Below are positions 1 through 11,678 of a stretch of 52,172 bases of DNA, in pieces. The DNA is from Burkholderiales bacterium (GTDB taxonomy: Bacteria > Pseudomonadota > Gammaproteobacteria > Burkholderiales > SG8-41): contig JBIOVQ010000229.1 in NCBI GenBank assembly GCA_044867805.1, positions 1 to 52,172 of the forward strand, read 5' to 3'. The notes beneath the pieces are model-generated. The model searched no databases, was not told the DNA's origin, and was given only the letters and a program-made list of their open reading frames with translations. The first letter of the stretch is position 1. Every line of letters begins with the position of its first letter. Position numbers and translations under genes: made by a program.

Positions 1-504
1 CCCTCCATCTTCCTTAGCAGCAATCACGGATTCCACGAATTCAAATCCACTGCCTCTTTCCGTTCGCGAGATGGGCCCGTCAGACCATGCAAGTCTAGAA
101 GCCGCTAGCTCTGCTCGCCGGTTCCAAGGTGTTGCGTCACTGTACGGATCCCCATACCAGAACTGATCGAACAAGTCCTTCTCCGTCGCCGGGGGTAGTG
201 GCTTGACCACCAGCACGCTTTTCACACCGGTGAACGTCTTGTAAATCTTCTCCCCGGCTTCGGTGTCGCACTTCTTCTTGAAATACGCCCACGACTCGCG
301 CGCATAGGCTTCGCGCTGCGCCTGCTCGATCAGCCGCTTCGCTGGCAGAAATCCGAACACGGCAATCGCGACAGCGGTCCATATCGCCTTGCCCCGCTGG
401 CCCTTACCCTTCCAGAGCGCCAGGGCGACCGCACCAATGGCGAACAGCCAATAGAGGACACCGAGTCCTCGCAGCACGCTACCTATTCCGGTCAGTTCAA
501 GCAT
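1..504 (-). CDS. Membrane-anchored hypothetical protein, 3' end outside window; possible immunity-type protein
   Basis: Not in ORF track. Manual translation from ATG 504 (AAGGAG upstream) is open to base 1: MLELTGIGSVLRGLGVLYWLFAIGAVALALWKGKGQRGKAIWTAVAIAVFGFLP...YFKKKCDTEAGEKIYKT...; two N-terminal hydrophobic segments. Confidence 0.8.
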   Translation of the reverse strand, partial: MLELTGIGSVLRGLGVLYWLFAIGAVALALWKGKGQRGKAIWTAVAIAVFGFLPAKRLIEQAQREAYARESWAYFKKKCDTEAGEKIYKTFTGVKSVLVVKPLPPATEKDLFDQFWYGDPYSDATPWNRRAELAASRLAWSDGPISRTERGSGFEFVESVIAAKEDGG

Positions 505-569
505 TTCTCATTTCTCCTTCCAAGGCCTGCAAGCGGCAACAATATGCAATTAGCGTTAATAATCGTTAA

Positions 570-730
570 TTGGGGTCGGACCACGCTATGCCTCGGTACT
601 TTCAAGACTTTCCTCCCAATAAAGGGTGTTTTCCGGCCTTAGAGCCCCATTGTCGGCCCCCAAAAGGACCGTATAAGGTTGCCTGGATTCTTGCAGCGCA
701 AAGAGCCCGTCCGACGTGGCGATTTCGCGT
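570..730. repeat. Imperfect ~160-bp direct repeat, copy 1
   Basis: TTGGGGTCGGACCACGCTATGCCTC...AAAGAGCCCGTCCGACG aligns with 1644-1811. Confidence 0.95.
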
Positions 731-775
731 CCCTTTGCCCTCACGCCAAGCTCACGTTTCACCGCTTCTAACGAA
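586..775 (-). pseudogene. Probable 3' remnant of a second Y1/RAYT-type transposase
   Basis: Reads EAVKRELGVRAKGREIATSDGLFALQESRQPYTVLLGADNGALRPENTLYWEESLESTEA*, which I recall as resembling C-termini of longer Y1 transposases; followed by GGTCCGACCCCA; cut off near the 781 repeat. Confidence 0.55.
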
Positions 776-780
776 AAATG

Positions 781-803
781 AAAAATGGGGTCGGAGTCAT
801 TTT
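781..803. repeat. REP-like 23-bp inverted repeat, left of RAYT gene
   Basis: AAAAATGGGGTCGGAGTCATTTT is the exact reverse complement of 1617-1639 and contains the transposase TGA stop (797-799). Confidence 0.95.
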
Positions 804-1534
804 TGCAATGCGGGACGGAAGCGGTAACGGGTAAGACGCTCGCGAGCAACAAATTTTCTGGGACGACCGCGCACTGGCACGTGTACACGGCGTCCCAGTG
901 CCCCTTCCAGTTTTTGCCTAAAGCCTTCCGTGCCGAGTACCAGTTCGTAATTGAGTGCTTCGCGTATTTCCTTGAGCTCCGGCAAATCGACCTGATGACG
1001 AAACAGGGTCTGATAAGCGTGCCTGCGCTCGTCCGCTGTGCGCCCCAGTGCTATGTATAGCGGGTGGTCTCGAATCAGCGGGTTGCTCTCGCCTAAGGCG
1101 TGATAGGCGAAGCTCGACCACCGGTATTGATCGGGACGGTCTACCATCTTCGCCCGCACGGGATTTAGCTCAATATAGCGATAGCACCTCAACAAATAGG
1201 GCTCATCTTCCACTAAGCTCGCTTTGAAGCGCCCCTCCCATAGCGTTCCAGTGCGCCGGTAGGTGTAATTCACGTATTGAACGTAACGACGCCCCACCGA
1301 CTGCATCAAGCGTGAGACCGCACGGCTGACATACGGCGTAACCAGTAGGTGAACGTGGTTCGTTATCAGCACGTAGGCATGGATATCGCAAGAGTGCTGC
1401 TCGGCCGCCTCCCGCAAACACTGAAGATAGAACAAACGATCCGCATCGGCGAAGAAAGTGCCCTGACGATTATTCCCACGCTGCACAACGTGCAGTGGCA
1501 CTCCTGGCAAGTCCAATCTCATTCGTCGCGGCAT
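797..1534 (-). mobile_element. REP-associated tyrosine transposase (RAYT; Y1/HUH, IS200-like fold), 245 aa
   Basis: HVVQRGNNRQ, HUH motif NHVHLL, LWEGRFKA, catalytic-Tyr region RYIELNPVRA, YRWSS; flanked by inverted repeats. Confidence 0.92.
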
Positions 1535-1616
1535 GAATTAGCCTCAGCGGTCCGTCCCATTGCCCATCGCCCAAGAAATCCGCTCAAAGCGACGCGGGGT
1601 TGCATTTCGTCAGACG

Positions 1617-1654
1617 AAAATGACTCCGACCCCATTTTTGCCGTTGGGGTCGGA
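1617..1654. repeat. REP-like inverted repeat right of RAYT gene, forming a REP-doublet hairpin
   Basis: AAAATGACTCCGACCCCATTTTT (1617-1639); TCCGACCCCA (1625-1634) pairs with TGGGGTCGGA (1645-1654). Confidence 0.9.
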
Positions 1655-1811
1655 CCACGCTATGCCTCTGTGCTTTCAAGACTTTCCTCCCAATAAAGAA
1701 TAAAGGGTGTTTCCCGGCCTTAGAGCCCCACTTTCGGCCCCAAAAAGGGCCGTATAAGACTGCGTGGGTTCCTGCAGGGCAAAGAGCCCGTCCGACGCAG
1801 CGATCTCGCGT
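1644..1811. repeat. Imperfect direct repeat, copy 2 (frameshifted transposase 3' remnant)
   Basis: Minus strand reads REIAASDGLFALQEPTQSYTALFGAESGALRPGNTLY, then a 7-nt AATAAAG duplication shifts the frame before WEESLESTEA*. Confidence 0.9.
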
Positions 1812-1842
1812 GTGCTTCACGATCGTCTCCGGGTGCTTAGTC

Positions 1843-4800
1843 CTAAAGTTGACGGAAGCCTTCGTCCAGCCCCTGCAAAGTTTCGAAGTTTCCGACAGGG
1901 CGCGCTGCGCCGGTCGATCCTGCGTAGCCAAAGCGCTCCGCCAACACTCCCGCCCCGAGCAGACCCTCGCTGAGAAAGCGCCACGCACCCGCGCCGTGCT
2001 GCATATCTTCGCCGTGTTCGCTCGAAAGCGCGCTCAGATAGCGGCTTACGCGCTGCCAGCGGAGCGCGATTTCGGCTGGACCGAGTGCTTCTTCGGTGCT
2101 GCCGTCGCTCGCGAACCACTCGAGCAGGATCGCGAAGTCGTAATCTGGCTGCTGCGCAAGTTGCGCTGCCACAGGGTCGTACCCGCCGCCGGGGTCGGCA
2201 CCCGGCGTCGCGCTCGAAGATTCAGCCTGCGGGCCTTCCGGTTGCAAATCATGGGCCTCAACGTCGAGACCAGGCGCGTCATCGACTGTTGCGGATTGCA
2301 CGGGAGACAACTCCGTAGCGATGCGGCCAGGCGCAGCCTGCGGCGCCTGATCCACTGCGAGGCTGCGCACCGCGGCCGCCGAGTGCACCTGGTGTCTTTG
2401 CGGAGGGTCCGGCAGGACCCGCGGCGCCGGCACGAATTGAAGGTGACCGAGGCCATGCCCGCCCTTTGCGCCCGGATTCCCCGGACTGGTGCCCGCCCCG
2501 TCGTTAAAATTGAAGTCGTGGCCCGGGGGCGGCGGGTCTTCGCCGTTGCCAACGCCTTCGTTGCCATGAACGCCGCCGCCACCGCCGCCTCCTCCATCCT
2601 CAAAGCTCAGGCGGAACTCGTCGGACGTGAAGAGACCGGAACTTTCGCCGCCGAGATCGCCGTCGGCCGCAGTGACTTCGATGTCGAGGAAGCCGGTCGC
2701 GTCGCCCGGCGCGCTGCCGGAGAAAGTCTGCGTCTGCGCATCGAAAGCGAGCCACGCCGGCAGCTCGGAGCCATCGGCCAACACCGCGCTATAGATCAGC
2801 TCGTCGCCCTGGTCGACGTCGGTGAAGCTACCCGCGGGGACCGCGTACGTGAAGCTGCGGCCCGGGCGCACGCTCTGATCCACCAGCGGGATGGCGACGA
2901 CGGGCGCATCGTTTTGCCCTTCGACGAACACGTCCAGCGTGGAGGAGCTCGCCGCAATGCCGTCGGTCACGCCGTAACTGAAGGTGTCTGGGAAGGCCTC
3001 GAAGCGAGGCAAGGACTGGACCGCCAGCGAGTCGTTATCGAGGCTGTAGCTATAGTTTCCGTCAACACCCAAACTCAGGGTGCCGTAGATCCCGGTGTAA
3101 ATTCCCGGATTCCCCACCAGCAGCGTCGTTCCTGCGTCCACGTCCCGGTCGTTCTCGAGGACGTCGCCAGTTGCAAAGAGAACGGCGTCCTCCACGGCGA
3201 AGTTGCTGTCGGGAAACGCCATCGGCGCGTCGTTGCGTCCCGAGATCGTGACGACAATCTGCGACGAGGCGCTCGCCGCCCCGGTCGGATCGTCGTCCGT
3301 CGCCGTATAGGAGAAGCTGTTGGTCGCCGCCTGGTTGGCACCGAGGCTCTGCACCGCGAGCGAAGCGTTGTTCAGTGTGTAGGTGAACGCACCCGTGCTT
3401 GCGAGCGACAGCGAGCCGTGCGCGCCGATAAAAGTCCCCGGATTCGTTACGCGCAGAGCGCGCCCTTCGGGATCCACGTCGTTCGCAAGCGCGTCTCCGC
3501 TTGCGGTGAGGATGCCGTCCTCAGTAACGTCGGCCGAATCAGGTGCGAGCAGCGGTGGCTGATTTTGCACCAGGCGCGCCTGCACTCCCGCACGATCGAG
3601 CACCGTACCGTCCCCGAGCCCGAGCTGGTTCCATGCGGCGGGATTGCTGAACCAGTCGCGCGCCGTGAACCGATCCGCCGTACCGGTCACGAGAATGACG
3701 AGATCGTTTCCGGCACGTTGCAGCGTCACCTGGCTATCGAGCAGGCCGCCCACGAGTTGCACGCCGTTGACACCTTGCGCGTCGATGGCGACGTCCTGCC
3801 CATAGCCCGAGCCGAAGAGATAAGTATCGTTCCCCGCGCCGCCATCCAGCGGCTGATCGTTGCCGGCGCCGCCGCCCAGCCGATCGTCACCTAGGCCGCC
3901 TGTCAGCAGGTCGATGCCCGCGCCCCCTTCGAGAAGGTCGTGGCCATCCCCGCCAAGCAGGCTGTCGTTGCCGTCGCCGCCATCGGCGTAGTCGTCCCCT
4001 GCTCCAAGATCAATGGAGTCGTTCCCGCCACGGCCCATGACAGCATCGCTGCCGCCGAACGCCTGGATCGGGTCGTTAAGCGCCGTGCCCGACAGCGCAT
4101 CGTCGCCGGGTGTTCCCCGGATCTGAAAGCCTAGCGCCTGGATCACCTGTTGCCGGCTCAAAACAGACGAGTCCGCGAACTGGAAGAACTCGATCGATCC
4201 CGCAAGAGGGTTGTCGGGGTCGAAATCGTCGAGATGAACCTCGCCGCCATCGGGCAGAACGATCTTCAACGACCCCACGTCGAGGCGCAGATTACCCAGG
4301 ACGAAATTGTTGAACACCAGGAAGTCCGTGCCGCCGCTATCGGCAATGCGGTCGTTACCGTCGCCGAGGGAATAGAAATAGACGTCGTCGCCGTCGCCGC
4401 CGTTGACGGCATCGTCTCCCAGGCCGCCGATCAATTGATCGTTGCCGCCACCGCCGACGAGCGTGTCGTTTCCCGATTCGCCGAACAGCACATCATCCTC
4501 GCTGCCGCCGTCGAGCACGTCGTCGCCCTCACCGCCGTGCAACTGATCCATGCCCGCGTCGCCGGAGATGGAGTCGTTGCCGGCGCCGCCGAGCAGCGAG
4601 CCGCCGAAGAACGAATGGTCGTCTCCGGCGCCGCCGGCGATGATATCGTCGCCGCCCTGACCATCGACGAAGTCGCTGCCCTCGCCGCCGTCGATGAAGT
4701 CCGCATCACCAGAGGGATCGGTGCCGCCTTCGTCGCCAACAATCTGGTCGTTGCCGGCGTCACCGAGAAGGACGTCCATGCCGGCATTGCCGACCAGGAT

Positions 4801-7770
4801 ATCGGCGTCCGCGCCGCCGTGGAGCTCGTCGTCGCCCCCTTCGCCGATCAGGATGTCGTCGCCCGCTTCGCCCGAGATGAAATCGTTACCATCACCGACC
4901 CCGCTGCCCGAGTCCCCCTGGAGGAAATCAGCGCCGTCGCCGCCGAAGATCGTGTCGCTATTGCCGGCGCCAAGAATTGTGTCGTCGCCGCCTTCGCCGT
5001 CGAGATAGTCGGTGCCGCCGATGTCAGTCGAATCGCCGAACATGCGGTCGTTGCCCTCGCCGCCGAAGAGCGCGTCGTCGCCGCCGTCGCCGTTCATCTC
5101 GTCGTTGCCGTCCTCGCCGTCGATAAAGTCGTCGCCGTGCTGGGCTATCGGGACGCTTGACGAGTCTCCGAACAGCTTGTCGTTGCCGCCGCCGCCGAAG
5201 ATCTCGTCGGCGCCGGCCTCGCCGAATACCACGTCCTCGCCAGCGCCGCCGTCGACCCAGTCGTTTCCCTCGTCCGTGAAGAGCCAATCCGCTCCGGCGC
5301 CCCCGTGGACCACGTCATCGCCGCCAGGCGACGGAGGAAGGAACCCCACCCCGTTGTAGATCCTGTTGTACAGCGTCGTGCCGCCGCCCAGATCGATGAC
5401 CTCGCGCGTCACGCTCCATCCCAGGGATACGATCGAGGTTTCGAGGTCGCCATCCACGTCGTCGTCGCCTGCGCCGGTGATGATGAGATCGGCGCCCGAG
5501 CCACCATTCAGCGCGTCGTTGCTCGCGCCGGAGACGAGGATGTCGTCTTCAGATCCACCGTCGATGAAGTCCCCGCGCAACCCGGTGCCCGCCGCGTCCT
5601 GCGCGGCAAGCGCGGCCTCGAGCGTGACCTCATCATCGCCGAAGACCTTGTCCTTGCCCGCATCGCCGCGCAGCAGGTCGCCGTCGGTCCCGCCGATGAC
5701 GATGTCGTCGCCCGCCCGGCCGGAAACGATATCTCGCCCTTCGCCGCCGTCGAGCTTGTCGTTCCCGCCGCGGGATGCTTCGATCACGTCCGCGCCTGCA
5801 AAAGCCCGGATGTCATCGTTCCCGGCGCTGTCGAACAGCAGGTCCGCGCGTCCGGGCTCCGGCTGGCCCGGATCGGTGATGATGTTGCCCAGATCGTCCA
5901 CTCGCGTCTGGATCCCGGGCGTGCCGGGATCGAAGTCCACCGGTGCCAGATCGCCGACGATGGTGCGGTCGGTGACGATGGGCTGCGGCGCGTTGCCAAG
6001 GTAGATGCCGAAATCGCCGTTCTGGATGTCGGCCCCGAGATCGAGTGTGCTGCCGTCCGCCAGCGTCAGTATCCAGTTGGCGCCGTGCGTGAGCGTCATG
6101 CCGCCTTCCGCTGCATTCCAGACCTGGGAAGTACCTTGCTGCAGGAACAGACCCGCCACCGGCGTGTCCCCCGCGTCCGACTCCAGGACTATGCGCCCGC
6201 CCAGGAGGCCGCCGCCTTCGCGCTCTTCGATGATCTGGTCGTTCCCGTCGCCCGCGCGGCGGTAGTAATGGTCCAGGCCCGTGCCGCCCTTGAGAACGTC
6301 ATCGCCGGGACCGCCAACAAGGATGTCGTTGCCGCCTCCGGCATCCAGCGTGTCGGTGCCCTCCAGGCCGAACAGTCTGTCTCTTCCGTCCCCGGAACTG
6401 AGCTGGTCCGCGCCCGATCCGCCGAGCATGAGGTCGAACTTCGCATCGGCGCTGGCGGTAGCGACGAGATTTCCTTCGGATTGCAGACTGTACCGTTCAG
6501 AGCTGACAATAAAGCGATCGAGATTCGGGTACAGATTGCCCAGGGCGTCGTGCAGCTCTCTTAGTCCTTCGCTTGTAAATTGCGAGTGCTCCGGCCGCGG
6601 CGAAAATTGAATGCCCCCGCCTAATGATTCAAATACCGGCTGATACAGTCCGCTCGCCACTTCGGTCGCTCGATCGATTCCTTGCCCGTAGTGCATCCCC
6701 ATCCCAAGGGAAACCAGCGCGGCCTTGATCTTGCCTGCGCTGAGCCCGCCGTTTAGCCGCTGAACGTCCTGCGCAAAGGTATCCGACGCGCCGTTAAGGT
6801 TCTGCCGCACCATGAGGTTGATGAAGTTGCGATCCGCCGTCTCTTGCTTGAAGTTCAGCCTGGAAGTGAAGAACTTCTGCAGCAGTTCCGGATGCGCGCT
6901 GCTCGCGTCGAGCAATTGCTGCGACTGCAGGAAGGACACGAGCAACGGCATGTAGTGCATGTCGATCGGGTCACCAGTGAACAAAGGCCAGCCCCAACCG
7001 TTGCCGTTTACGGCCCGTGGATCACGGCTGTCTTCGGAGCCTGCAATGTTGGCTACGTTCAGCGCCATGAACAACAAAGAGGGATGCGTAAGACCGACTG
7101 CCGTGAGCAGCAACCTTCCGGAAAGCCCGCGGAGATACTCAAGCGCCTCGCCTTTCAGATACAAATGGCTCACATTGCTCTCTCGAGCCACCCGGGTAGG
7201 ACTCGGAATGAGAGATCCAAAAACAGGATCGAACGCGCGATAGTCTGCAAACGAAGACGGCAGTGAATAACCCGCTCCGACGAGCTCGGACCTGAGCCTG
7301 CTTACGACAAAGAAAGAGTCGGCGGATTTTTCAAATGGTGCGGAGTCAAATGTCGCTGCTGTCCGGTCGAAAAACACCGCCATCAGGGAGGCAAGACCGC
7401 CCCCGAGGGAATGTCCCGTAAAGCTGATGTTTGCCCCCGGGTTTGCAGCAAGCACGTCCAGATAGAACCTTGCGGCATCAACCACCTGGCGCGCCAGAGT
7501 CACCCCGGCGGCGGCAGGCACATTGCCTTTAAGCCAGTCGCGGAGCTGGTCTGCGGTGCCGCCCTCGAACGTAGTCCCGCCGAACGAAATGACGATCTCG
7601 CCGGTGCTGTTTCGATATGCCCGAGCCAGAAATCCGCTGTTGGCTAGATCCCGACCGTCGAACCGTGTCCACCCCGCTGAGGCTGGAATTTCGTTGTTGG
7701 GATCAACCACGTTCTCCGATTCGGCGTACGAATTTGCCGCCATCAAGGCATATTCGAGAGTTGTCGGCAT
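1843..7770 (-). CDS. T1SS-secreted RTX protein: N-terminal lipase (alpha/beta hydrolase) domain, Ca-binding nonapeptide repeats, VCBS/cadherin-like domains; 1975 aa
   Basis: FTGHSLGGGLA nucleophile elbow; dozens of GGxGxD repeats; NQPP/NDAP-initiated Ig-like domains with YTLNN/YSLDN; CADG-like LADGSELPAWLAFD; GGAG RBS; no Sec signal. Confidence 0.93.
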   Translation of the reverse strand: MPTTLEYALMAANSYAESENVVDPNNEIPASAGWTRFDGRDLANSGFLARAYRNSTGEIVISFGGTTFEGGTADQLRDWLKGNVPAAAGVTLARQVVDAARFYLDVLAANPGANISFTGHSLGGGLASLMAVFFDRTAATFDSAPFEKSADSFFVVSRLRSELVGAGYSLPSSFADYRAFDPVFGSLIPSPTRVARESNVSHLYLKGEALEYLRGLSGRLLLTAVGLTHPSLLFMALNVANIAGSEDSRDPRAVNGNGWGWPLFTGDPIDMHYMPLLVSFLQSQQLLDASSAHPELLQKFFTSRLNFKQETADRNFINLMVRQNLNGASDTFAQDVQRLNGGLSAGKIKAALVSLGMGMHYGQGIDRATEVASGLYQPVFESLGGGIQFSPRPEHSQFTSEGLRELHDALGNLYPNLDRFIVSSERYSLQSEGNLVATASADAKFDLMLGGSGADQLSSGDGRDRLFGLEGTDTLDAGGGNDILVGGPGDDVLKGGTGLDHYYRRAGDGNDQIIEEREGGGLLGGRIVLESDAGDTPVAGLFLQQGTSQVWNAAEGGMTLTHGANWILTLADGSTLDLGADIQNGDFGIYLGNAPQPIVTDRTIVGDLAPVDFDPGTPGIQTRVDDLGNIITDPGQPEPGRADLLFDSAGNDDIRAFAGADVIEASRGGNDKLDGGEGRDIVSGRAGDDIVIGGTDGDLLRGDAGKDKVFGDDEVTLEAALAAQDAAGTGLRGDFIDGGSEDDILVSGASNDALNGGSGADLIITGAGDDDVDGDLETSIVSLGWSVTREVIDLGGGTTLYNRIYNGVGFLPPSPGGDDVVHGGAGADWLFTDEGNDWVDGGAGEDVVFGEAGADEIFGGGGNDKLFGDSSSVPIAQHGDDFIDGEDGNDEMNGDGGDDALFGGEGNDRMFGDSTDIGGTDYLDGEGGDDTILGAGNSDTIFGGDGADFLQGDSGSGVGDGNDFISGEAGDDILIGEGGDDELHGGADADILVGNAGMDVLLGDAGNDQIVGDEGGTDPSGDADFIDGGEGSDFVDGQGGDDIIAGGAGDDHSFFGGSLLGGAGNDSISGDAGMDQLHGGEGDDVLDGGSEDDVLFGESGNDTLVGGGGNDQLIGGLGDDAVNGGDGDDVYFYSLGDGNDRIADSGGTDFLVFNNFVLGNLRLDVGSLKIVLPDGGEVHLDDFDPDNPLAGSIEFFQFADSSVLSRQQVIQALGFQIRGTPGDDALSGTALNDPIQAFGGSDAVMGRGGNDSIDLGAGDDYADGGDGNDSLLGGDGHDLLEGGAGIDLLTGGLGDDRLGGGAGNDQPLDGGAGNDTYLFGSGYGQDVAIDAQGVNGVQLVGGLLDSQVTLQRAGNDLVILVTGTADRFTARDWFSNPAAWNQLGLGDGTVLDRAGVQARLVQNQPPLLAPDSADVTEDGILTASGDALANDVDPEGRALRVTNPGTFIGAHGSLSLASTGAFTYTLNNASLAVQSLGANQAATNSFSYTATDDDPTGAASASSQIVVTISGRNDAPMAFPDSNFAVEDAVLFATGDVLENDRDVDAGTTLLVGNPGIYTGIYGTLSLGVDGNYSYSLDNDSLAVQSLPRFEAFPDTFSYGVTDGIAASSSTLDVFVEGQNDAPVVAIPLVDQSVRPGRSFTYAVPAGSFTDVDQGDELIYSAVLADGSELPAWLAFDAQTQTFSGSAPGDATGFLDIEVTAADGDLGGESSGLFTSDEFRLSFEDGGGGGGGGVHGNEGVGNGEDPPPPGHDFNFNDGAGTSPGNPGAKGGHGLGHLQFVPAPRVLPDPPQRHQVHSAAAVRSLAVDQAPQAAPGRIATELSPVQSATVDDAPGLDVEAHDLQPEGPQAESSSATPGADPGGGYDPVAAQLAQQPDYDFAILLEWFASDGSTEEALGPAEIALRWQRVSRYLSALSSEHGEDMQHGAGAWRFLSEGLLGAGVLAERFGYAGSTGAARPVGNFETLQGLDEGFRQL

Positions 7771-7795
7771 GTCATCTCCCCTTCAGAGAAAAGGA

Positions 7796-8455
7796 TCACC
7801 AATCACAACGCGCGGCTTTCGACGACAAAAACACATCCGGAGTTCGATCAGTCTGAGACTTGACGGTCTTGCATTTGGTGCACATACCCTTGTAGTTAGG
7901 CAATTCATTCAGCCACTTTGCGCCCCGAGCCTTGAGTTCATAGTTGAGGCTGATATCGAAATTCTCCTTGGCGGCGAGCGTAACCAGGCCGCGAGCATCA
8001 TCCTTCTCGTTGGCCTGTACTGGGCTCAGGATGAGGTTAATCCGGAGTTGCGCCGGGAACTTGCTGCTCTCGATCCTCTGCCATGTCCCGGCAACCCATA
8101 CGAAATACAGCGCGCTTGTATCCGGATAGCCGTGGAGCATGCAAGTTGAACAACCACGCAATGACACCTTGACGTAAGCCTTGCCGTCCACGACGTCAAA
8201 ATTCTCCGGATTGTATTCAGGCTTGGATTTCCAATGGATTCCCATCGGCGGATAGCACAGCTCGTGGTACATGGCTCGGCCTCGTTTCTGTACCGGGAAA
8301 CCGCTTGCCGTGAGCTCGGTGCGGCGCTTGACCTGAATGACTCTGCCGTCATGCTGCCTGACTTCTTCCGTCCACTTGATTTCCGTCGGGCCGCAGCCTG
8401 CGATCCCGGGGAAAAGCGATAACAACATGGCGCCAGCCGCGAGTGAGTGCTTCAT
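7796..8455 (-). CDS. Cys-rich lipoprotein, candidate immunity protein for the lipase-RTX
   Basis: ATG 8455 with GAGGA RBS; signal MKHSLAAGAMLLSLFPGIAG-C (lipobox-like); two CxxC pairs; 25 nt upstream of the RTX gene. Confidence 0.75.
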   Translation of the reverse strand: MKHSLAAGAMLLSLFPGIAGCGPTEIKWTEEVRQHDGRVIQVKRRTELTASGFPVQKRGRAMYHELCYPPMGIHWKSKPEYNPENFDVVDGKAYVKVSLRGCSTCMLHGYPDTSALYFVWVAGTWQRIESSKFPAQLRINLILSPVQANEKDDARGLVTLAAKENFDISLNYELKARGAKWLNELPNYKGMCTKCKTVKSQTDRTPDVFLSSKAARCDW

Positions 8456-8506
8456 CGAACATTCCTCAAGACCGAATCGAAAATGGGGCCGCATAATGAA
8501 TATTTA

Positions 8507-10654
8507 TCAAGCATCTTTCCGCTCCTCCCCCACCACTCCCATCTTGGTCCCCCGCTGCCCCAGTGTGACCACGCTGTCCACCTGCAAGCCCTTGGGAAGC
8601 TGGTGGGTGATGAATAGCATCGTTACGCGGCCTCGGAACTGATTGACGGTGCGGGCGAACTGCTCGGCCGTGGCGGGATCCAGGCCGCTCGTCGCCTCGT
8701 CGAAGATCAGGATGCGCGGCCGCTTCAAGAGCGCGCGGGCGATGGCGATGCGCTGCTTCTGCCCGCCCGAGAGCCCTGCTCCGTGCTCGCCGATCTCGGT
8801 CTGGTAGCCCTGTGGCAACTGCTCGATCGTGTCGTGGATTTCGGCCAGCTTGCAGGCCTGGATCACCTGCTCGAAAGTGGCGTGCGGGTTGGCGAGGACC
8901 AGGTTGTCGTAGAGGGTGCCGCTGAAGAGCACCGTCTCCTGCGGCACGACGCCAAAATGGCTCCGCAGCTCGTTCGCGCTCAGATGGCGCACATCCCGCG
9001 CGTCAACGGCGATGCTCCCCTCCTCCGGCTGAAAGAAGCCCTGGAGGAGCTTCGCCAGCGTGCTCTTGCCGCTGCCGGACGGGCCCATGATGCCCACGCA
9101 CTTGCCCGGCTCGATCGTCAGGCTGAACGCCTTGTACAGGTACGGCAGGTTGGGTGCGTAGCGGAAGCTGAGCCCTTTCACCTCGATCCACCCCTCGCCC
9201 TTCGTTTCCCGCGCGGGCAGCAGCGAGTACGGCTCGGCGGGCGCGTTCATCACGTCACCCAGCCGCCGCACTGCGATATCGGCCTGCTGGAACTGCTGCC
9301 AGAGGCCGACCAGGTGCAGCATGGGTTGCGAAAGCCGGCCCGCGAACATCTGGAACGCGACCAGCATGCCGATGGTGAACTCCTGGCTCGTCATGACCAT
9401 CCAGGCGCCGACGCACAGGATGGCGAGCATCAGAAGCTGCTCCAGCATGTGAGCGGCAACGCTGTAGGTATTGCCGAGCTGCCGGGTGCTGAAGCCCGCC
9501 TGCAGATAGGAAGCGAGGTAGTCCCCGAAGCGCCGCTTGAGCTGCGGCTCCATCTGCAGCGATTTCACGGTCTCCATTCCGGAGACGTACTCCGTGAGGA
9601 AGGCCTGGTTGCGGGCGCCGAGCAGGAACTGCTGGTTCAGGCGCCGCCGCAGGGCCGGAGTCACGGCCAGGCTCAACCCCACGATCAGCAGCAGGATGGC
9701 GACCGCAATGAGCGTCAACGTGACGCTGTAATAGAACATGACCGCGAGGAAGATGAACAGGAACGGCACGTCCAGCACCAGCGTCACCGCAGCGCTGCTC
9801 AGAAACTCCCGAATCGTCTCGACCCCTTGCACTCGCGCCACCAGCACGCCGGTCGGCCGATGCTCGAAATAGCGCGGCGGCAGCCTGAAGAGATGCTCGA
9901 AGACCTGCGAGCCGAGCACCGCGTCTATGCGATTGCCGGTGTGGAGCACAAGGTACTGCCGCACCCAGCTCATGATCGCGGTGAAAACGATGAACACTCC
10001 AAGCGCGATGCCGATGACGGCGAGCGTGCTGAGCGTCTGATGAACGATGACCTTGTCTATCACGACCTGGGTGAAGACCGGCGTTGCCAGCGCCATCAAC
10101 TGGATCGCCAGCGACGCGAGCAGCACATCGCGCCAGATTGCCCGGTGCCGGACCAGCTCGGGGATGAACCAGCGGAATCCGAATTCACGAGGCGTCCCCG
10201 AAGCCGCGTCTTCCCCTTTCAGCTCGGGGGCCGCCGGGGCACATAGCAGGACCTTTCCGGAATATTGCCCGGCAAATGCCTCGAGCGTGGAAGTCATCGG
10301 CTGCTGCCGGCCTTCCTCGAAATACACCACATTGTCCCCGTCGCATTTCACGACGACGGCCAGGCGCTGAGGCCGGGGAAGCTCCTGCATATCCGGCGCG
10401 CTTTCCGATGCTGCATTCGGATTCAGCGTCGCGACAAACGGCGCGGGCAGCCGCGATAGCTCGCGTGCCGCCACATCGCGCAAGCCGCTCTTGAGGCCAA
10501 GGGCGGCCGCCGCCTGCTGCAAGGAGAGCAGGCTATAAGGAGGGGGAAACTGCTGAAGAACCAGTTTCGGAGAAACAGGGACACGGTGGATCCGGCAGAT
10601 TCCCTGCAGGGCCCACGTATAAGTTTCAGCAGCCAGCAGCAGTCCGGTAGCCAG
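8507..10654 (-). CDS. Type I secretion ABC transporter with C39-like N-terminal domain (HlyB family); start uncertain
   Basis: Walker A GPSGSGKST, LSGGQKQRIAIARA, IFDEATS; FGFRWFIPEL and QVVIDKVIVH typical of HlyB; frame stays open upstream of the track's TTG 10522; CTG 10654 has GGGGAG 7 nt upstream. Confidence 0.92.
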   Translation of the reverse strand: MATGLLLAAETYTWALQGICRIHRVPVSPKLVLQQFPPPYSLLSLQQAAAALGLKSGLRDVAARELSRLPAPFVATLNPNAASESAPDMQELPRPQRLAVVVKCDGDNVVYFEEGRQQPMTSTLEAFAGQYSGKVLLCAPAAPELKGEDAASGTPREFGFRWFIPELVRHRAIWRDVLLASLAIQLMALATPVFTQVVIDKVIVHQTLSTLAVIGIALGVFIVFTAIMSWVRQYLVLHTGNRIDAVLGSQVFEHLFRLPPRYFEHRPTGVLVARVQGVETIREFLSSAAVTLVLDVPFLFIFLAVMFYYSVTLTLIAVAILLLIVGLSLAVTPALRRRLNQQFLLGARNQAFLTEYVSGMETVKSLQMEPQLKRRFGDYLASYLQAGFSTRQLGNTYSVAAHMLEQLLMLAILCVGAWMVMTSQEFTIGMLVAFQMFAGRLSQPMLHLVGLWQQFQQADIAVRRLGDVMNAPAEPYSLLPARETKGEGWIEVKGLSFRYAPNLPYLYKAFSLTIEPGKCVGIMGPSGSGKSTLAKLLQGFFQPEEGSIAVDARDVRHLSANELRSHFGVVPQETVLFSGTLYDNLVLANPHATFEQVIQACKLAEIHDTIEQLPQGYQTEIGEHGAGLSGGQKQRIAIARALLKRPRILIFDEATSGLDPATAEQFARTVNQFRGRVTMLFITHQLPKGLQVDSVVTLGQRGTKMGVVGEERKDA

Positions 10655-11073
10655 AGACCTGCTCCCCTGCGTTGCGTCAGCGCGTATCTCTTCGCGCCCT
10701 AACGGGCGTTTGCCAGCCCGGTTAGGGCCGGTCGCTTTGCTCCTATCGCCCTCTCTTCGTCCCCGGACGAGAGCCTCGCAAATCGCCGAACCGGACCAGC
10801 TATCGCCCCCACGGCTACGGGGTGAACTGGCTTCTCATTGGGGAAGAGTTAACGGCTTGCTGTACCAAAAATCAAATCTATCAAAATGTTAGGTTTAGGT
10901 TCGGCCCCAAACCGCTTGAAACAGAAAGCGAATCTCCCGTTTGTCTCTCTCAGCCGCCGTACCGTCGCCTCGCGTGCCGTCGTTACTTGCTCTTCCCAAT
11001 GTGCGATCCCGTACCAACGGGCCAGGCACGCCGCCGGCCGCACTACACGATGCCGCGAAAGGTTGATCTACGC

Positions 11074-11115
11074 TGTCAGGAAATCCCGACAATTCATGTC
11101 AGGATTTTCCTTACA
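11074..11115. promoter_or_regulatory. Tandem imperfect palindromes, putative operator upstream of the T1SS operon
   Basis: TGTCAGGAAATCCCGACA (11074-11091) and TGTCAGGATTTTCCTTACA (11097-11115), 23-bp period. Confidence 0.45.
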
Positions 11116-11182
11116 GGCAGCGGACAGGTGCCCCGCAAAAACAACAGGGCCAGCTCTCCGCTGGCCCTGTTCTCGTCCGTCG

Positions 11183-11201
11183 GAGGGGAGTATCCCCTCA
11201 T
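11183..11201 (+). repeat. Partial copy of GTAG-type REP-like palindrome
   Basis: GAGGGGAGTATCCCCTCAT, identical to the core at 31780-31797. Confidence 0.75.
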
Positions 11202-11213
11202 TTCGTTCGGTGC

Positions 11214-11678
11214 CTAGGGCTTCAGCTGCCCCCTGATTTCACCGCCCTTGTTCTTGGCGCTGTGCACGTTGACGTAGAGACCGCTCTTTTTGTAGGCCGC
11301 GTATTGCGCGTCGGTCAGCCTGGCGCCGGCGGGAACGGACCACGTGTTGCCGTCGCTGCTCTTGGTGAGCGGGATGATCACCGGGCCGTTGCGTCCGGCC
11401 GGGGCCATGTGGATGTGCGCCGCGGTGCCGACGACTCCCGTGGTCTTGACGCTGCCGCTCACCGTCTTGTCGTCCTTGATGGTGATCGTGCCGCTTCCCG
11501 AAGCCTCGGTCGTGACCGGGGGATTTTGCTCGGAGCCGCTGAGCTTCACGTTGTCGCCCGCGAAGAATCCCTTGGTCGAATCCCACGCCCCACTCATCGT
11601 CTCGCAGCCGGAAAGCGCCAGCGCTGCCGCCGCAACCAGCATGGGAATCACCGCGCGAACCTTGCTTGATATTGTCAT
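11214..11678 (-). CDS. CHRD-domain lipoprotein
   Basis: LALSGC lipobox; LSGSEQNPPV, AAHIH, GPVI, LYVNVHS, GGEIRGQL; GGAGGAG RBS. Confidence 0.9.
   Translation of the reverse strand: MTISSKVRAVIPMLVAAAALALSGCETMSGAWDSTKGFFAGDNVKLSGSEQNPPVTTEASGSGTITIKDDKTVSGSVKTTGVVGTAAHIHMAPAGRNGPVIIPLTKSSDGNTWSVPAGARLTDAQYAAYKKSGLYVNVHSAKNKGGEIRGQLKP

Follow-up and report, generated by a model that had tools for sequence, protein, structure and literature searches.

We analyzed a stretch of 52,172 bases (hereafter the window) that makes up the whole of contig JBIOVQ010000229.1 in a metagenome-assembled genome (MAG) of a Burkholderiales bacterium (GenBank assembly GCA_044867805.1; 365 contigs, 91% complete). 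At its left end lies a locus for a large RTX protein with an N-terminal lipase domain, a small lipoprotein and a type I secretion system (T1SS) exporter. Five co-oriented genes on the minus strand fill bases 1-10654 (Table 1). Those for the HlyB-type exporter, the lipoprotein and the RTX protein are followed by a gene for a REP-associated tyrosine transposase (RAYT) and by a further one, here called the edge gene, whose frame runs off the contig at base 1. An initial annotation of this DNA had described the same five genes in the same order and orientation, with coordinates close to ours. On this single strand, the exporter and lipoprotein genes are spaced by 12-51 bases, with 51 bases from the exporter stop codon to the lipoprotein gene, and 25 bases separate the lipoprotein gene from the RTX gene, and Shine-Dalgarno sites precede both the lipoprotein ATG at 8455 (GAGGAA) and the RTX ATG at 7770 (GGGGAG).

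Table 1. Features of the RTX locus at the left end of the window
Feature	Position	Strand	Basis
HlyB-type T1SS ABC exporter with N-terminal C39-like region	8507..10654	-	profile matches, homolog alignment
Lipoprotein of an uncharacterized family, lipobox IAGC plus seven further Cys; proposed to serve the lipase domain as immunity protein or partner	7796..8455	-	sequence, alignment, model
RTX protein, 1975 amino acids	1843..7770	-	
N-terminal alpha/beta-hydrolase (class-3 / Tle6-like lipase) domain, RTX residues 1-440	6451..7770	-	profile, model, Foldseek
RTX calcium-binding repeat region, roughly residues 450-1390	3601..6423	-	HemolysinCabind, repeat cores
Cadherin_4, Big_9 and He_PIG Ig-like domains, residues 1402-1705	2656..3567	-	domain matches
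Gly/Pro-rich linker and C-terminal region ending ...TLQGLDEGFRQL; presumed T1SS secretion signal	1843..2655	-	
RAYT	797..1534	-	Y1_Tnp, REP_Tyr_transpos
RAYT unit with perfect 23-nt inverted repeat, arms 781-803 and 1617-1639	781..1639	.	
Direct repeat of about 170 nt, copy B	570..730	.	copy A at 1644-1811
Edge gene: first 168 residues of a membrane-anchored small protein, full length about 300 amino acids	1..504	-	

The exporter matches ABC_membrane (166 bits) and ABC_tran (121 bits) and is 59-61% identical to HlyB at related loci; its top NCBIfam model, TIGR01846 type_I_sec_HlyB, scores 622.9 bits and falls short of the curated cut-off (725.55). The first canonical start codon in its frame is a TTG at 10522, and no ATG, GTG or TTG lies upstream of it. 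Homologs align from approximately residue 6 of the frame starting at 10654, about 40 residues beyond 10522, and the CTG at 10654 is preceded by GGGGAG, a Shine-Dalgarno-like sequence. HlyB probably starts at this CTG; for the start region (10522-10840), the cause may be a mutated start codon, an error of assembly or initiation at a non-canonical codon.

HlyD and TolC had been placed outside the window by the initial annotation, and neither lies in it. Elsewhere in the MAG, TolC is encoded on contig C77 (318.5 bits, above its cut-off), and the sole above-cut-off HlyD on C155, adjoining a different, shorter ABC exporter. In relatives, the HlyD gene is found 3′ of the last RTX gene (G143, G018 and G041) or directly after HlyB (G133). 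By the former arrangement, the HlyD gene of the window would lie past the contig end, beyond base 1, where sequence cannot be read because the window is the whole contig. The second T1SS pair, at C155:1648-4621 on a 5-kb contig, consists of an ABC exporter with a frame of 567 amino acids and an HlyD of 355.7 bits. This exporter matches TIGR01846 at model positions 141-678 only, and so probably lacks the N-terminal C39-like region. Neither TssC nor a LapG-type protease (PF06035), a sign of adhesin retention, was found in the 91% complete genome.

The lipase domain and its lipoprotein partner

The RTX protein carries the motif FTGHSLGG at residues 117-124 and matches Lipase_3 with 26.1 bits against a cut-off of 22. 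When a profile of the lipase domain (A2, 20 aligned sequences) was compared with the PDB, it matched Tle, a type VI secretion system (T6SS) lipase effector of E. cloacae (7ubz_B), at E 1.2e-11 and fungal class-3 lipases at about 5e-4. Likewise, an AlphaFold model of the domain (pLDDT 86.5, pTM 0.89) had as its top Foldseek match 9cys_A, the E. cloacae Tle/Tli complex (E 1e-6), with fungal feruloyl esterases and lipases next and 2zj6, a family I.3 RTX lipase, in 45th place (E 6e-3). The catalytic triad of Tle is Ser341/Glu393/His448 (PMC11470151). By residue count in the profile alignment, it corresponds to S121, E208 and H272 of the RTX protein; all 20 A2 sequences share S121 and E208, and at least 90% have H272. 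These comparisons identify the N-terminal domain as a homolog of a T6SS lipase effector, predicted to be an alpha/beta-hydrolase with a Ser-Glu-His triad. A Tle-like lipase had been proposed initially; its homology to T6SS effectors is upheld, but the closest group is that for which the name ‘Tle6’ has been proposed, not Tle1-4.

Apart from the lipase domain, the protein has the organization of a T1SS substrate. HemolysinCabind is matched in 16 stretches (262 bits), 23 GGxGxD-type repeat cores lie between residues 450 and 1310, and the whole protein contains no Cys. Its C-terminus, ...LQGLDEGFRQL, resembles the ends of the full-length RTX proteins in loci L065, L082 and L085; secretion-signal models gave no match to it. 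The ending shared by the four (window 1843-1900; L065, L082, L085) can be written (T/A/F)-(L/Q)-x-(G/T)-L-x-E-G-x-x-x-L. Family I.3 RTX lipases (Pseudomonas, Serratia LipA/TliA) also have an N-terminal lipase followed by RTX repeats and a dedicated T1SS. However, they are only about 470-620 amino acids long, are without a partner gene or Ig-like domains, and are structurally farther from the lipase domain than Tle is.

At E<=0.001, a search with residues 1-440 yielded 1970 cluster representatives, of which 789 remain at E<=1e-10. The alignment nearly always begins at residue 1 of host proteins that reach 4260 amino acids, and all 17 of the long representatives scanned are RTX proteins, none with a VgrG, PAAR or Rhs match. 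Judged from these matches, a Tle-like lipase on an RTX architecture is widespread, and the single grafting event envisaged in the initial annotation is not borne out. The protein thus differs from Tle6 effectors (E. cloacae Tle, Serratia Slp) in its delivery: instead of T6SS-associated VgrG, PAAR or Rhs parts, and with no TssC found in the genome, it has an RTX/T1SS chassis.

The lipoprotein belongs to a family of 114 proteins at E<=0.001 (counting that of the window itself), every one of them hypothetical; the named sources are Sulfuritalea, Gallionellales and Betaproteobacteria. All 20 aligned homologs retain the lipobox Cys and another four Cys residues. No Pfam or NCBIfam model matched the protein, a profile search of the PDB gave a chance-level match only, and the matches in the ESM Atlas were all to clusters named ‘hypothetical protein’. 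The predicted structure (pLDDT 86.4) is mostly beta-strand, and neither Foldseek against the PDB (best E 0.033) nor a wide VIA-align search (best Z 3.9) found a convincing relative. The protein was first described as Tli-like, and it does resemble E. cloacae Tli in being a lipoprotein beside a lipase whose closest solved relative is Tle (PDB 7UBZ, 9CYS), with the Ser-Glu-His triad aligned. E. cloacae Tli is a lipoprotein immunity protein that acts in the periplasm (bioRxiv 10.1101/2023.03.28.534661), and Tle6 members are always encoded with ankyrin-repeat immunity proteins (PMC11470151). The lipoprotein, in contrast, is Cys-rich and beta-rich with no known fold and had no ankyrin among the fold matches listed, so that a relationship to the ankyrin Tli of the Tle6 group has to be abandoned. 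Small partner proteins at these loci carry a lipobox, a signal peptide or a transmembrane (TM) anchor, depending on the member. Predicted periplasmic exposure is therefore their sole conserved localization feature, and the type of anchor varies.

Whether lipoprotein homologs sit next to lipase genes had been suggested as a check, and the two were found side by side in three sets of sequences. At 7 of 9 loci on genome contigs, a lipase N-terminal domain lies directly 3′ of the lipoprotein, and the remaining two contigs end there. The pair is also present at 25 of 32 assessable metagenome loci (37 loci in all), the unpaired ones being L100, L107, L110, L111, L117, L120 and L122, and HlyB lies upstream on the same strand at 14 of the 26 metagenome loci with enough upstream sequence. 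Among 401 genomes of the order, 15 of 22 lipase matches at E<=1e-40 have a lipoprotein-family match directly upstream on the same strand. Six of the seven exceptions were fetched: five have a divergent small open reading frame (ORF) with a signal, lipobox or TM anchor and then the same W-x-E-E-V...DG motif, and the sixth has a possible remnant. The lipoprotein family occurs in 25 of the 401 genomes, the lipase in 49 and both in 15, counts that carry no formal test as the genomes are interrelated.

Across 18 non-redundant pairs, from which three near-duplicate loci had been dropped, the pairwise identities of lipoproteins and lipases were correlated (Spearman 0.69), a value reached by none of 2000 permutations. 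At six loci that also hold HlyB, the coefficient was 0.81 for lipoprotein and lipase, 0.16 for lipoprotein and HlyB, and -0.01 for lipase and HlyB; mean identities at these loci were 48.9% (lipoprotein), 49.9% (lipase) and 64.3% (HlyB). By these measures, the lipoprotein and the lipase move as a unit apart from the exporter. In the window, the DNA for the lipoprotein and the lipase domain (6500-8500) has a GC content of 0.56-0.58, compared to 0.63-0.66 for HlyB (8500-10500) and 0.61-0.69 for the RTX body. Relatives are alike in that the GC content at third codon positions (GC3) of the cassette genes is below that of HlyB.

A lipoprotein paired with a T1SS-exported RTX protein is known from the frpDC locus of N. 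meningitidis, where FrpD, a lipoprotein of the outer membrane, binds the N-terminal part of FrpC with a Kd of ~0.2 nM (PMC5233953, PMC3034196). The likeness to our locus is considerable: the lipoprotein gene, with its invariant lipobox Cys, lies immediately upstream of the gene for a large T1SS RTX protein with a non-RTX N-terminal region. The lipoprotein could accordingly be an outer-membrane tether that displays the RTX protein as a surface lipase or adhesin and has no role in killing or immunity. The frpDC-like gene order, the co-variation of the two proteins and the presence of cadherin/Ig-like domains, typical of adhesins, are all compatible with such docking. Nevertheless, we regard it as unlikely. 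Given that some members are TM-anchored or have a plain signal peptide, periplasmic exposure fits better than surface display, and the arrays of truncated lipases and the genomes with only the lipoprotein (see below) would be unexpected for a docking factor. No FrpD-like fold was found for the lipoprotein, and no FrpD entry was among the matches listed. FrpC's N-terminal domain is without a known enzymatic fold, unlike the lipase here, and a comparison of RTX residues 500-720 with PDB sequences for the Ca-dependent Asp-Pro self-processing module of FrpC gave RTX-repeat matches only and no FrpC entry. Moreover, FrpC/FrpD has itself been hypothesized to be a T1SS antibacterial effector/immunity pair (Bayer-Santos et al., 2019; PMC6759196).

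Strict pairing and co-variation would also be expected of an activator or foldase, that is, of a small envelope protein that folds, activates or loads the lipase in the manner of Lif or of cytosolic E. cloacae Tli, with neutralization being optional. Indeed, E. cloacae Tli is needed for the production of active Tle in addition to neutralizing it (bioRxiv 10.1101/2023.03.28.534661; PMC11470151). We consider such a helper role quite improbable for several reasons. The partner is exported, whereas T1SS substrates are believed to pass through the envelope with no periplasmic intermediate, and the RTX protein has no Cys. In addition, family I.3 RTX lipases require no helper (PMC3034196), and the lipoprotein-only genomes favor a protective role.

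Cassette arrays and other N-terminal domains

At several loci, the lipoprotein and the lipase occur in more than one copy or in fragments. In G018, four to five lipoprotein/lipase cassettes follow a single HlyB gene; the array closes with a full-length gene, and the lipases upstream of it are truncated or fused. The paralogs of this array are 39-72% identical for the lipoproteins and 50-95% for the lipases. Lipase fragments beside lipoproteins were also found at L024, L094, L099, L114 and L118, and 10 of the 25 lipoprotein-bearing genomes have no lipase match.

The edge gene encodes a protein with a hydrophobic N-terminal anchor. Its family, which is present in 17 of the 401 genomes, consists mostly of open frames of about 290-370 amino acids (a few are shorter or longer) and is unrelated to the lipoprotein family (hhalign probability 0.27%). 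At L020, at L023 and at five of seven fetched loci (L079-L082 and L085), an RTX protein with a GYSLGG hydrolase is immediately preceded by a member of this family; L083 and L084 did not show this arrangement. The GYSLGG motif was read directly in L023 only, the other loci matching that N-terminal domain by tblastn. Compared with the lipase, the GYSLGG domain gave an hhalign probability of 90% (E 1.6e-6) over 94 columns around the nucleophile elbow, which at the profile level makes it a distant relative of the lipase domain around this elbow. Since its family lies upstream of RTX proteins with this second, distant hydrolase domain, the edge gene would be the start of a second cassette. The suggestion that 1-504 opens another cassette is thus supported by synteny at seven loci. 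Neither the remainder of the edge gene nor a GYSLGG-type RTX gene was found elsewhere in the MAG.

A third type of cassette is present at L026, where a signal-peptide protein is followed by an RTX protein with a Phage_lysozyme N-terminal domain (31.1 bits, cut-off 22.3). This lysozyme cassette (L026:13024-20672, Gallionellaceae) comes after a lipase cassette; its RTX protein has at least 2303 amino acids, and the locus ends inside it. Three types of N-terminal domain, namely lipase, GYSLGG hydrolase and lysozyme-like, are thus found on RTX proteins beside homologous HlyB genes, and their partners are mutually unrelated. Two traits of polymorphic toxins are thereby present: different domains on a common scaffold, each with its own adjacent small gene, and orphan or truncated cassettes together with stand-alone immunity-type genes, as seen in the G018 array, the lipase fragments and the 10 lipoprotein-only genomes.

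Truncated RTX ORFs at three loci end in W-R-x-A-A-stop (L020:9828-9917, L023:17599-17688 and L026:12953-13042). At L020 and L026, the stop codon shares bases with the ATG of the small gene that follows (ATGA), and a ribosome-binding site resembling GGAGG is contained in the Trp-Arg codons. Read at the nucleotide level, the ending looks like a conserved translational-coupling junction rather than a protein motif.

The diversity of cassettes bears on another explanation, in which the RTX protein is an ordinary secreted lipase for nutrient scavenging or for attack on eukaryotic grazers, and the lipoprotein has an unrelated envelope function or shields the cell's own outer membrane. In its favor, the MAG is of environmental origin, fungal secreted lipases and feruloyl esterases have the nearest folds after that of Tle, and T1SS-exported RTX lipases are well known (PMC3034196). 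An unrelated function of the small protein, however, would leave unexplained the conserved pairing, the co-variation, the arrays and the cassette-specific families of small proteins, and the lysozyme-type cassette at a homologous locus would likewise be unaccounted for. We therefore judge this explanation improbable.

A candidate effector and immunity pair

The reading that we favor, with about even confidence, is that the locus encodes a T1SS-exported RTX lipase effector and its cognate, periplasm-facing immunity lipoprotein. What we observed directly is the set of genes, their homologies, the conservation and co-variation of the pair, and the arrays of cassettes. From them we infer export, lipase activity, binding, immunity, a bacterial target and a route into the target cell. 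An effector/immunity function is suggested because the nearest relative of the lipase is an interbacterial phospholipase with a periplasmic lipoprotein immunity protein, and because what is conserved in the partner is its periplasmic exposure rather than the kind of anchor. Furthermore, toxin-immunity loci are typified by such features as arrays, orphan cassettes and lipoprotein-only genomes, and different warheads pair with different partners. The lysozyme-like warhead at a homologous locus points in the same direction, as its target, peptidoglycan, occurs in bacteria only.

In the mechanism that we envisage, the C39-like-domain (CLD) type ABC exporter, an HlyD that is probably encoded past the contig end and the TolC of the genome would export the 1975-amino acid protein C-terminus first. 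The RTX repeats would fold on calcium outside the cell, the cadherin/Ig-like domains would bind a surface, and the N-terminal Ser-Glu-His lipase would hydrolyze membrane lipids of neighboring bacteria. The lipoprotein, facing the periplasm of the producer, would neutralize lipase arriving from sister cells or resulting from faulty export. The small protein and the N-terminal domain would form exchangeable cassettes on a common RTX/T1SS chassis, and the gene at 1-504 would open a second cassette of another type.

Several points weigh against an effector/immunity function. We know of no mechanism that takes a T1SS-released protein of ~200 kDa into the periplasm of a neighbor, and class-3 lipases and RTX lipases also occur as ordinary extracellular enzymes. 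The fold of the lipoprotein resembles no known immunity protein in the Foldseek and wide VIA-align searches. Linked genes share their history, so that the co-variation can reflect co-transfer instead of co-evolution driven by contact. In the G018 array, the lipases of cassettes c4 and c5 are 90% identical but their lipoproteins only 47%, contrary to strict cognate specificity. Finally, the HlyB gene has no canonical start and no cognate HlyD was found beside the locus, so that this MAG may hold an incomplete or inactive system.

More tentatively, we raise the possibility that these loci represent a widespread, undescribed class of T1SS polymorphic toxins with a reversed order. In this class, a variable N-terminal warhead (lipase, second hydrolase or lysozyme) would stand on a constant RTX/Ig scaffold, the immunity gene would lie upstream, and spare truncated cassettes would accumulate upstream of the full-length gene, with exchange promoted by the RAYT/REP elements found repeatedly between cassettes. 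Enzymatic interbacterial effectors with cognate immunity are well established for the type IV, V, VI and VII secretion systems (T4SS, T5SS, T6SS and T7SS); for the T1SS we know only of bacteriocin-like RTX proteins and Cdz, in addition to the suggestion made for FrpC/FrpD.

Among described T1SS-exported antibacterial proteins are RTX bacteriocins such as the rhizobiocins of Rhizobium (PMC3034196, in which RTX lipases are likewise described) and CdzCD of Caulobacter (PMC5380434). These differ from the system proposed here in that their mechanisms are unknown or aggregation-based and no N-terminal lipase with a periplasmic partner encoded upstream has been described for any of them. In the Stenotrophomonas/Xanthomonas T4SS pair Smlt3024/Smlt3025, the effector shares homology with RTX N-terminal domains, and the upstream gene encodes a periplasmic immunity protein with an FrpD-like fold (PMC6759196). 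The effector family, the secretion system and the immunity family are all other than ours; the RTX homologs with a different N-terminal domain given in Supplementary Table S2 and Fig. S4 of that paper could bear on the generality of the pattern. In full-text searches of papers available without subscription, we found no description of a Tle6-like lipase on an RTX scaffold, of the partner family or of the cassette arrays, nor of a T1SS RTX lipase with an upstream immunity protein.

If the effector/immunity reading is true, it would give a function to the many large ‘hemolysin-type calcium-binding’ proteins found in environmental Betaproteobacteria and would define a new immunity-protein fold. 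It would also raise the new question of how a T1SS-released lipase gets into the periplasm of a neighbor. The locus offers a lipase-lipoprotein pair that is directly testable.

Transposase, repeats and genomic setting

The upstream neighbors of the exporter gene are housekeeping genes: CHRD, Usp, DUF1178, three tRNAs, and then pgsA- and uvrC-like genes, as identified by translation. A terminator-like hairpin is located at the end of the upstream CHRD gene. No sigma-70-like promoters were found, with 1.8 expected from shuffled sequences, and bases 1-11300 gave no Rfam match at E<=0.1.

The transposase matches Y1_Tnp with 48.8 bits and REP_Tyr_transpos (NF047646) with 69.6 bits, the latter below its cut-off of 80. 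Its assignment as a RAYT is based on the combination of a Y1 (IS200-like) transposase domain with flanking inverted REP sequences, here the 23-nt repeat listed in Table 1. The RAYT and the edge gene each have, upstream, one copy of a direct repeat of about 170 nt, the copies being 86-96% identical; a further partial copy was found at C347:8653-8720.

RAYT homologs (33-67% identical) or fragments of them recur in the T1SS loci L023, L032, L053, L055, L080, L099, L101, L105, L106, L109, L114 and L120 of other genomes; seven of the 37 metagenome loci are among these. Usually they separate a truncated lipase or an orphan small gene from the cassette that follows, and their recurrence may tie REP/RAYT elements to cassette turnover. 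Six of the recurring RAYTs are flanked by perfect inverted repeats of 14-24 nt, and a GGGGTC core is present in five of these six (all except that of L109).

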